Assembly (NCBI GenBank): GCA_031459535.1
Contig: JAVKIJ010000040.1
Location: 1-27,159 of the forward strand
Origin: Candidatus Fervidifonticultor quintus
Lineage (GTDB): Bacteria; Sysuimicrobiota; Sysuimicrobiia; Sysuimicrobiales; Humicultoraceae
Direction: 5' to 3'
DNA length: 27,159 nucleotides
Part shown: one piece after another, positions 21,001 through 24,000 of the stretch
Numbering within the stretch: the stretch's first letter is position 1
Layout: each line of letters starts with the position of its first letter
Program-made: the position numbers

Positions 21001-24000
21001 GGCGCTCGGCGCGTTTGCCATAGTGGCTACTCCGCGGCGCCTGTTCCAGTTGCGCGACGCGGTGCAGCGGGTCACCGCAGGGGACGTCATGCGGGTCGCC
21101 GGGACCTATCTGATCGAGAAGCGGCGGACCGTCGGGTGGTTCCTGCCCGAGGGTGCCCCGGCCCGGCAGGTGGCGGCATGACCCCTCCGGTGGTGGCCGC
21201 GGATGTACGGCGCACGGTGCTGCCCAATGGCATGGTCTGCCTGGTGAAGCCGGCGCCGGCCACCGGCGCCGCGGCCGTGCACGGCTACGTGAGGGCCGGC
21301 TCGATGTTCGACGCCGACCTCTCGGGCCTGGCGCGGTTTGTGGGCAGCATGCTGCTCTGGGGCACGCAGCGACGCACCGGCCCCCAGATCGCCGAGCAGC
21401 TGGATGCGATCGGCGCGAGCCTGTCGGTGGCGAGCGGGATCGAGGTCACGGCTGTGGCGGGTCGTTCGCTGGCAGACGACCTGCCGGTGCTGCTCGGCAT
21501 CGCGGCCGAGGTGCTCATGGAGCCGGCGTTTCCGGCGGATCACGTGGAGAAGGTGCGTGGCGAACTGCTGACGACCATCAAAGTTAACGCGGTGGACACG
21601 CGCCAGGCCGCGGAGCGCGCGTTCCGGAGGCTGGCGTACCCGGCCGGCCATCCCCACAGCCGGAGTCCGGACGGCGAGGAGGCGGTGGTGGCGTCGCTGC
21701 GGACGGAGGCGCTCCGGGCGTTCCACGCCGAGCACTACCGGCCCGGCGCGACCATCCTGGCTGTCGTCGGTGATGTGGACCCGGCGCGGGCGACAGACCT
21801 GGTCGCCTCGGCGTTCGGTTCCTGGGCCCCGAGGGGGGCCTGGGTGCTGCCGTCCTTTCCGGGACCATCCCCATCCGGCGGCCGGAGGGAAGAACACCTC
21901 GCCGTCCCCGGCAAGAGCCAGTGTGACCTGGTGCTTGGGATTCCGGGCGTCACCCGTTCCGATCCGGCCTACTACGCGGTCATGATGGCCAACCTCTTTC
22001 TCGGGCAACTGGGCATGATGGGCCGCATCGGCCAGAATGTCAGGGAGAAGCAGGGCATGGCGTACTATGCCTTCAGTGAACTGCGCGCTGGATTGCTCCC
22101 CGGCCCCTGGTGGGTGCGTGCCGGGGTGAACCCGGCCAACCTCGAGCGCGCGCTGGCGGCGATTGTCCACGAGATCGGGGAGCTGCAGGCCGACGGCCCG
22201 GCCCCTGACGAGCTCGCCGATGCCCGGACATACCTGGTGGGCTCGCTGGCTGTGCGGCTCGAGACCGCTGGCGGTGTGGCGCAGATGCTGGCCGACATGG
22301 AGCTGTTCGGGTTGGGGCTGGACTACCTCGAACGCTATCCGGCCATCATCCACGGCATCAGCCGCGACGCCATCGTCGAGGCGATCCGGCGGTTCCCCGC
22401 CGACGCGTGCACACTGGCCGTGGCTGGACCGGAGCGGACGGCGTGACGGACCCCCGGGCCCAGCTGGCCCGTATTGCGATCCTGGGCGGCACGGGTGATC
22501 TCGGGCACGGGCTCGCGGTGCGCTTCTGCGCCGCCGGGCACGAAGTGATCGTCGGCTCCCGCAGTCCCGAGCGCGGGGCCGAGATCGCCGGGCGGTTGGG
22601 GCTTCGCAACGCGCGCGGCGCCGGCAACGCCGCCGCCGCCCGCGAGGGCGACATCGTCATCGTGGCCTGTCCCTCCGAAGGGCATGCCGCCCTCGTCGGA
22701 GCCCTGGCGGCCGAGTTGCAGGGCAAAATCGTGGTGGACGCCACCGTGCCCATCGGATCAGGGCTAACGTACGCCCCGCCAGCGGCGGGCTCCGCCGCGG
22801 CCGAAACCCAGGCCCTGGCGCCGGGCGCGCGGGTGGTGGCCGCGTTCCACACCCTGTCGGCGCGGCTGCTGGCCGACCTTGGCCGGCCGCTGGACCAGGA
22901 CGTCCTGGTCTGTGGGGACGACGACGCGGCCAAGATCCGCGTGATGGATCTGATTGACTCCATTGGCGCCAGGGGCGTGGACGCCGGCGGCCTGGCCGCT
23001 GCGGCGACGGTCGAGGCGCTGGCGGTGCTGATCATCGGGTTGAACGTCCGGTACAGGCGCCGACACCTCGGCATCAGGATCGCCCACCTGCCGCCGCACG
23101 CGCGACCCCGATGAAGACGCTGCTGGCCTGGGCCCCAGAGCCCTTTCCGGAGATCCACCCCGGCGACGACCTGATCGGCGCCATCGCCACCGCGCTGCGG
23201 GACGCCGGGCTGATCCCGCAGCCAAACGATGTGGTGGTGGTCGCGCACAAGGTGGTATCCAAAGCGGAGGGAAGTGTCGTGGACGTGCGCACCGTGACGC
23301 CCAGCGCCCGCGCGGTGGAGCTGGCCGAGGCGACGCACAAGGACCCGCGCCTGGTCGAGGTCATCCTGCGCGAGTCCAGGGACTTACGCCGCGTGCGCCC
23401 GGGGCTCATCATCGCCGAACACCGGCTGGGGTTCGTGTGCGCCAACGCAGGCGTAGACCATTCCAACGTGGGGCTGGGTGACGATGTGGTGGTGACGCTG
23501 CCCCGTGACCCGGACGCGTCAGCCGCCCGCCTGCGGGACGGGCTGATGGCAGCGTTCGGCGTCGAGCTCGGCGTCATCGTCAACGACAGTCACGGCCGGC
23601 CGTTCCGTCAGGGCACCACGGGTGCGGCGATCGGCGCGGCAGGGGTGCGCGTGCTGCGGTCCTACGTCGGCGAGGCCGACCGCTACGGGTATGTGCTCCG
23701 CGTCTCGGTGGAGGCCATCGCCGACGAGATGGCGGCGCTGGCCAACCTGCTCCAGGGCCAGGCGGCCGAGGGCCGGCCGGTGGTCCTCATCCGCGGCGCC
23801 GAGCACCCGGGTGCCGGCTGCGCCGCTGATCTGGTAAGACCGCAAGAGGAGGACCTGTTCCGGTAGTCCACACCGACGTACAGCGAGGGTCGTCATGATC
23901 GTCATCGCCACAGGCATCTCCGGGACCGGCAAGCTGCGCGACGCCGGGGGCCGGCCAGGGTACCTGACCCGCCTGATTGAGGAAGGCAGCCAGCGCATCG

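Follow-up and report, generated by a model that had tools for sequence, protein, structure and literature searches.

Coenzyme F420 enzymes without F420 synthesis genes: a conserved npdG-cofE pair and probable cofactor salvage in Sysuimicrobiota

How does a bacterium that encodes enzymes for using and finishing coenzyme F420 obtain the cofactor when the genes for building it are missing? The question is raised by two genes in the window, by which we mean the whole 27,159-nucleotide stretch of Candidatus Fervidifonticultor quintus DNA that was analyzed. The first, npdG (22443..23114, + strand), is assigned to the F420H2:NADP+ oxidoreductases (Fno), scoring 197.6 on TIGR01915 against a cut-off of 149.8. 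The second, cofE (23111..23866, + strand), is assigned to the coenzyme F420-0:L-glutamate ligases, scoring 268 on TIGR01916 against 180.65. An earlier survey of the genome had placed both genes at these coordinates and over their cut-offs, and in this it was right. The two reading frames share an ATGA overlap. The best PDB matches of NpdG are Fno enzymes (5N2I, E 5e-43; 1JAX, 5e-31), with STEAP/STEAP4 behind (2e-20), so that the protein is nearer to Fno than to the STEAP or P5CR folds. CofE is a single domain without an FbiE fusion, and its closest solved relative is the A. fulgidus enzyme (E 6e-48). Since its nearest named sequences come from Ca. Fervidifonticultor (81-84%) and other CSP1-3 genomes, followed by Anaerolineae, the host can be placed in Sysuimicrobiota (CSP1-3).

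Upstream of the pair lie two co-oriented M16 peptidase genes (19889..22446, + strand; PF00675/PF05193), and the stop of the second overlaps the GTG start of npdG, leaving no gap. Synteny identifies the M16 genes as a conserved landing site of npdG-cofE in most of the phylum; in Anaerolineae, they are replaced at this locus by other genes. Downstream of cofE, a gene at 23895..25208 (+ strand) encodes a 437-amino-acid protein that resembles a P-loop kinase and a nucleoside deoxyribosyltransferase (NDT). It has no Pfam or NCBIfam match, and its Atlas neighbors carry AAA_17 (18-41% of members) and NDT families. The protein is 65-87% identical across the host family, where its gene lies near cofE, but it was not seen in the loci examined from other families. 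It is probably a mere neighbor of cofE, unrelated to F420. The window was also recovered as contigs from one hot-spring metatranscriptome, but cover was flat over 29 of 30 bins, and we set this aside as a sign of expression.

The survey had predicted five F420-dependent enzymes in the host genome, and the same five passed their cut-offs here: one member of TIGR03617, three of TIGR03619, and a PPOX of TIGR03667 (150 against 125). This count is probably conservative. A PF00296 search returned 10 matches, four of them over F420-family cut-offs; among the other six, four are intact and score best on F420 families, though below cut-off, a fifth is interrupted by a stop, and the sixth runs off a contig end. 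Every LLM gene that was scored had an F420-type family as its best match.

Genes for building the cofactor were sought in several ways. Profile searches of the host genome gave no match to cofH, cofG, or cofD, and CofC-like matches of at most 32 bits against a cut-off of 105. A tblastn search with the CofC, CofD, CofG, and CofH proteins of relatives returned only a weak match to YvcK. With HMMs built from 14-60 lineage sequences and run on all six-frame ORFs, there was no CofG or CofH, the CofD model reached YvcK at 31 bits, and the best CofC-like match was an NTP transferase at 36 bits. Seven genes carry a radical-SAM-like motif, none of them CofG/H-like, and only distant nitroreductases (about 30%) resemble fbiE. 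Neither CofG with CofH (or FbiC) nor CofC/FbiD with CofD/FbiA is therefore present in the genome as assembled. These searches agree with the survey on the absence of cofC, cofD, and cofG, and they add cofH, which it had left out. Because the host genome is only 88.85% complete, in 138 contigs, the case for absent synthesis genes rests on its relatives.

The comparison covered 73 Sysuimicrobiota genomes that are at least 85% complete and, for the host family, 34 genomes, 20 of them of high quality. The tallies take in two unpublished genomes (G016 and G024), and no conclusion hinges on either. Across the phylum, cofE occurs in 72 of the 73 genomes, npdG in 54, cofD in 25, and cofG in 19. Within the host family, cofE is present in 31 of 34 genomes, including all 20 of high quality, against four with a true cofD, four with cofC over its cut-off, and three with cofH. 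The survey's finding that cofE is widespread and that most relatives lack the synthesis genes is thus borne out, with exact family figures that differ from its own. Two of its statements need correction. cofD, said to be missing from every high-quality genome, occurs in one of the 20 (G028; 92% complete, 1% contamination, with cofC/D/G/H). Likewise, npdG, said to adjoin cofE in all 15 loci, does so in 23 of 30 family loci, one of the seven misses being a contig start; in two genera of the family, it has been relocated away from cofE.

The phylum falls into three tiers: 19 makers (17 from family f3 plus G002 and G028), six genomes with cofD and no cofG, which we read as FO salvagers, and 48 with neither gene, here called tail-only, like the host genome. 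Among these 48, cofE is kept by 47 and npdG by 43; only 5 of the 19 makers keep npdG. Most makers of family f3 have lost npdG, which 4 of 18 retain; at several f3 loci (L181, L202, and L203), cofE is flanked instead by an FGD-like LLM (TIGR03557). One of the 48 (G080) has an npdG-cofE-fbiE-cofD locus in which cofD is cut at the contig end. Four of the 50 genomes searched for LLMs at E<=1e-45 have cofE without one (G043, G049, G050, and G075), and G043 is also without npdG. In families f1 and f2, many tail-only genomes have cofE followed by a gene of the mandelate racemase/enolase family (L102-L110, L176-L177, and L196-L199); the host genome does not. Five Chloroflexota genomes show the same tiers, two being without cofD and cofG, two having cofD only, and one having both. 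One of the tail-only pair is a single-contig chromosome, with ambiguous bases at the locus.

Is the CofE of a tail-only genome still an F420 ligase? In the A. fulgidus enzyme, we take D109, D150, T151, and E208 to be metal/GTP-site residues. According to an excerpted account of its structure, G153-C155, R234, and F92 surround the F420 ring (PMC10861534). All 35 tail-only sequences and all 8 makers compared carry identical residues at the positions matching D109, D150, G153, R154, R157, and R234; in the window CofE, these are D116, D159, G162, R163, R166, and R243. The window protein departs from A. fulgidus at S160 (T151), P164 (C155), Q217 (E208), and G98/L99 (F92 region), variants that are also found in makers of the phylum, and none of the alignment columns tested separates tail-only genomes from makers. 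Furthermore, cofE is under purifying selection, with dN/dS of 0.07-0.22 over 13 tail-only pairs (Nei-Gojobori), usually below that of the neighboring M16 gene, and of 0.11-0.17 between the window gene and three congeners. G002 and G028 combine a full cofC/D/G/H set with this orthologue as their sole CofE. By identity, the window CofE is a predicted F420-0:L-glutamate ligase.

The history of the locus can be read from its relatives. Most of the Anaerolineae loci examined carry an npdG-cofE-fbiE-cofD-cofC operon, and the window pair is the 5' half of this type of operon. In a quick maximum-likelihood tree, for which the careful search is unfinished, the CofE sequences of the phylum group together (SH-aLRT 95), for the most part in line with the families. 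A quick tree of CofD likewise places 26 of 27 phylum sequences in one clade (94), but it conflicts with the CofE tree for the host-family copies, which group with those of another family (99), the G002 copy falling outside on a long branch. The cof islands of G002, G028, and G019 have a GC3 of 0.77-0.86, against 0.89-0.96 in their flanks, and IS neighbors. From this we infer an ancestral F420 pathway, its loss in most families, and occasional regain. One low-GC3 island, G002:C11 (L095:8822-17507), holds cofG/H, folP-folB-folK, a hisA-like gene, cofD, cofC, and an LLM, which we read as folate and F420 synthesis regained together. We rejected the idea that this contig is a mis-binned piece of the host genome, as its flanks are merely 75-79% identical to it. 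Cross-binning is probable for another contig, G002:C46 (L325), where 4.3 kb of rib operon sequence match host contig C48 at 99.5% identity and G002 has a rib operon of its own.

With the building genes missing and the using and finishing genes kept, the host and most of its phylum retain enzymes that use, recharge, and finish F420 and probably take the cofactor itself from their neighbors. For the host, we consider it on balance likely that it is an F420 auxotroph, which takes up F420-0 or F420-n, re-tails it with CofE, and reduces it with NpdG. The phylum ancestor would have had the npdG-cofE-fbiE-cofD-cofC operon together with cofG/H, and most lineages would then have lost cofG/H (ring) and cofC/D and fbiE (side chain) while keeping cofE and npdG. 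The cell would import F420-0, or F420-n with a short tail, that other microbes release. Using GTP, CofE would add gamma-glutamates, trapping the cofactor and raising enzyme affinity, and NpdG would reduce F420 with NADPH. About ten LLM/PPOX enzymes, assigned to their families by sequence, would be the users. Relatives with cofC/D would salvage FO instead, mostly through a RibU-like ECF S-component.

Other vitamins of the host fit a scavenging habit. In tblastn searches, folP, folK, and pdxS/T were absent from the host genome, and the window carries salvage genes for thiamine (6347-12591; tenA-like, cytX, thiW, thiM, thiE, thiL, and thiD) and nicotinate (pncB, 1615-3003). Folate salvage is probable, given folC, fhs, and metF without folP and folK; these three genes lie with acetyl-CoA-pathway-like genes at host C57:10992-19335 (by sequence inspection, folC by profile). 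More broadly, and somewhat short of what we would call probable, F420 could be a shared vitamin for which Sysuimicrobiota and some Anaerolineae are divided into makers, FO salvagers, and F420-0 salvagers, with a RibU-derived ECF importer and, in the host family, a putative second importer. If true, about two thirds of the phylum genomes would run many F420-dependent reductases on the cofactor of others.

Salvage of this kind calls for a carrier. As one part of a review has it, the phospho-acid tail keeps F420-0 from crossing membranes (PMC8498797), and a tail-only cell therefore needs a carrier for F420-0 or F420-n. Without CofC and CofD, the cell must import one of these and not FO, which a partial account reports in the supernatant of a producer (PMC11104420). 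The survey had proposed uptake and tailoring of foreign F420. This is still the explanation that fits best, and it is strengthened by the CofE pocket, dN/dS, the tiered distribution of genes, and the ECF protein of relatives; an importer was found neither in the host genome nor in the tail-only members of its family. On the binding-protein model of the actinobacterial F420-0 ABC transporter (TIGR03868), the best host match scores 25.8 against a cut-off of 392.4, and five of five further tail-only genomes are also below cut-off. Homology searches and lineage HMMs gave no RibU-like S-component in the host genome. Its two ECF S-components were rejected as F420 importers, one being ThiW and the other of a probable cobalamin-linked type, so labeled by a motif.

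Relatives have a better candidate in a paralogue of RibU, which has the RibU fold (TM-score 0.83 to 5KBW, rmsd 1.7 A, 30% identity). It lies inside or beside fbiE-cofD-cofC in G019, G023, G079, G081, and 6 of 17 metagenome loci, and another locus has it ahead of a cofE-fbiE fusion and cofD. It also adjoins npdG in G077 and one metagenome locus, and F420 PPOX genes in f3. Other copies are found beside a flavin reductase or folP (among L098, L121, L168, L191, L204-L233, and L442-L458), and many more have no F420 neighbor. The two RibU marks that were checked, a riboswitch and a conserved Asn, are lacking: none of the 20 loci scanned has an FMN riboswitch at gathering score upstream, and Asp stands at the Asn position in 40 of the 44 sequences from loci and in 95 of the 120 homologues from databases. 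The Asn is kept in 14 of 14 RibU-type copies, and a separate, weaker-matching RibU paralogue does have an FMN riboswitch. Of the 6 FO salvagers, 5 have the paralogue, as do 9 of the 19 makers. Among tail-only genomes, it is present in 16 of 25 outside the host family and in 0 of 23 within it (one 50-residue fragment in G013), and it was not found in any of five Chloroflexota genomes. We regard it as a candidate deazaflavin importer for the phylum and not for the host genome; the ligand of a protein with the RibU fold may be FO or riboflavin and not the charged F420-0.

Two ABC systems were also considered. An NMT1/THI5-type transporter directly after cofC in genus g27 was rejected because no F420 gene accompanies it in the loci fetched from 16 of 19 genomes; in addition, a related contig has an ECF gene in the operon instead, and the host genome is without the transporter. 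In three related Anaerolineae loci (L405, L386, and L406), a UgpAB-like ABC operon stands directly after npdG-cofE, and both of the genomes searched are without cofD and cofG. It is possible that this system imports a phosphodiester (F420-0). We keep it as a lead; the host genome has no match to it above 28%, and makers, too, have UgpB-like genes in the neighborhood of cofE.

Could the same genes serve something other than salvage? CofE might glutamylate another molecule, with NpdG and the LLMs using FMN, FO, or another flavin. The "F420-dependent" labels of the TIGR models presumably rest on phylogenetic profiling, which counts in favor of such repurposing, as does the retention of cofE in more genomes than npdG or the LLMs. 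A partial account also describes CT611, a chlamydial CofE homologue, as replacing FolC (PMC1971073). That role is unlikely for the window CofE because the host has folC (349 bits) and the protein scores only 79.2 against a cut-off of 350 on TIGR04132 (folate-type ligase/FolC2), outside that family. With no pocket substitution that separates tail-only from maker CofE, and with the scored LLM genes all best on F420-type families, repurposing seems to us unlikely. We also think it improbable that FO enters the cell and is converted to F420-0 or a carboxyl-ended analogue by a pair of enzymes that are unrecognized or non-homologous; YvcK, with its CofD fold, acting together with an NTP transferase would be one example, and the downstream kinase-NDT protein another. 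Such a route would draw on the FO that producers release, by a partial account (PMC11104420), and it is consistent with a CofD-fold protein in 32 of 34 family genomes and with the persistence of the RibU paralogue in genomes without cofD. However, the sole PF01933 gene of the host is YvcK (362 bits, TIGR01826), which has its own locus and reaches just the 31 bits noted above on the lineage CofD HMM; a role as a stand-in CofD is not supported. The best CofC-like match stops at 36 bits, and in the loci examined from other tail-only families, cofE has no kinase-NDT gene at its side.

Another account moves the pathway from the cell to the population, such that mobile cofC/D/G/H islands are often regained and cells without one leave the system idle. 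The low GC3 and IS neighbors of the islands and the conflict between the CofD and CofE trees speak for it. Yet islands are carried by 5 of the 34 family genomes and by none of the 18 f2 genomes, which is too rare for a dN/dS near 0.1 in every tail-only pair, and we give this account little chance. Finally, synthesis genes might be missing merely through incomplete bins, as the fragmentation of the host genome and the cofD missed at the contig end in G080 would allow. For the lineage, this is very unlikely. Incompleteness does not explain the tiers, since the same search found cofD in 18 of 18 f3 genomes and 0 of 18 f2 genomes, and since G001 (4 contigs, 97% complete, eight LLMs), G044 (99%), and G070 (100%) are near-complete and yet without cofD and cofG. 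Salvage of F420 made by neighbors remains the explanation that we favor.

A side finding concerns another vitamin. The host genome has two FMN-type riboswitches, one of which is a variant (C71:19270-19407, or L236:1501-1638; homologues in L267-L319) with changes in J6/1, where GUAUGAGGUGRAG replaces GGAUGGGAGAAG, and in loop 3, which has an extra base. Among 60 loci hand-picked from 139 matches, mostly second, lower-scoring copies, 36 are variant, 20 canonical, and 4 degenerate; three ECF rows in this set that a script had mislabeled were corrected by eye. All 20 canonical copies lie upstream of the rib operon or ribU. The variants precede pdxS-pdxT (7), an ECF S-component with an AIR-synthase-like gene (15), or an ABC binding protein (14), and never the rib operon. 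The variant is thus a candidate vitamin B6/PLP riboswitch, with putative B6 transporters downstream. As the host is without pdxS/T, the orphan ABC binding protein behind the C71 variant is a candidate B6 importer; we rejected it as an F420 importer because the same variant precedes pdxST elsewhere. Part of a 2022 review gives PLP as without a validated riboswitch (PMC10043782), excerpts of a paper on known FMN variants make no mention of pdx genes (PMC6298564), and our literature search found no report of such an FMN-variant/pdx riboswitch. It may be more novel than the F420 finding.

The use of F420 is normally inferred only from a full set of biosynthesis genes. In the same vein, portions of a 2021 review describe CofE as co-inherited with other F420 genes and contain no occurrence of "uptake," "scaveng," or "auxotroph" (PMC8498797). 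Available main text of two CSP1-3 papers, including PMC11604079, has 0 occurrences of F420, although their supplements may list genes. Our literature search, supplements excluded, returned no demonstration of F420 import and no paper about its salvage or about the cofactor in Sysuimicrobiota. If tail-only genomes do use F420, the reach of the cofactor has been underestimated, and it takes its place beside B12 and folate among the cross-fed cofactors. As a concrete candidate for deazaflavin import, the RibU paralogue could also be of use in providing engineered hosts with F420.

The concept of salvage is not new, as an F420-0 importer has already been proposed, though unproven. Selengut and Haft reportedly put forward in 2010 an F420-0 ABC importer for Actinobacteria that keep only cofE, and NCBIfam carries models for a "putative F420-0 ABC transporter" (TIGR03868/03869/03873). 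What is new here is the phylum-wide tiering and a different candidate for the importer. Like the genomes with the actinobacterial cassette, the host has cofE and F420-dependent enzymes without other cof genes; it differs in the absence of that transporter (25.8 against 392), in belonging to another phylum, and in that cofE is core there (72 of 73) and paired with Fno. The chlamydial FolC2 (CT611) is also a CofE-fold gene without other cof genes, whereas the host has folC, F420 clients, and Fno, and its CofE reaches only 79 of 350 on TIGR04132. Compared with RibU (3P5N and 5KBW), the S-component of relatives shares the fold but has an F420-gene context, Asp for Asn, and no FMN riboswitch. The window CofE and NpdG are orthologous to the first two genes of the Anaerolineae operon (CofE 48-58% identical), the host differing from this Chloroflexota-type pathway by its lack of cofG, cofH, cofC, and cofD. 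More generally, in folate salvage with re-glutamylation by FolC/FPGS and in the tiers of B12 salvage, loss of early synthesis leaves an import step and the final tailoring enzyme in place. The logic of F420 in the host would be alike, with a non-homologous enzyme and another cofactor.
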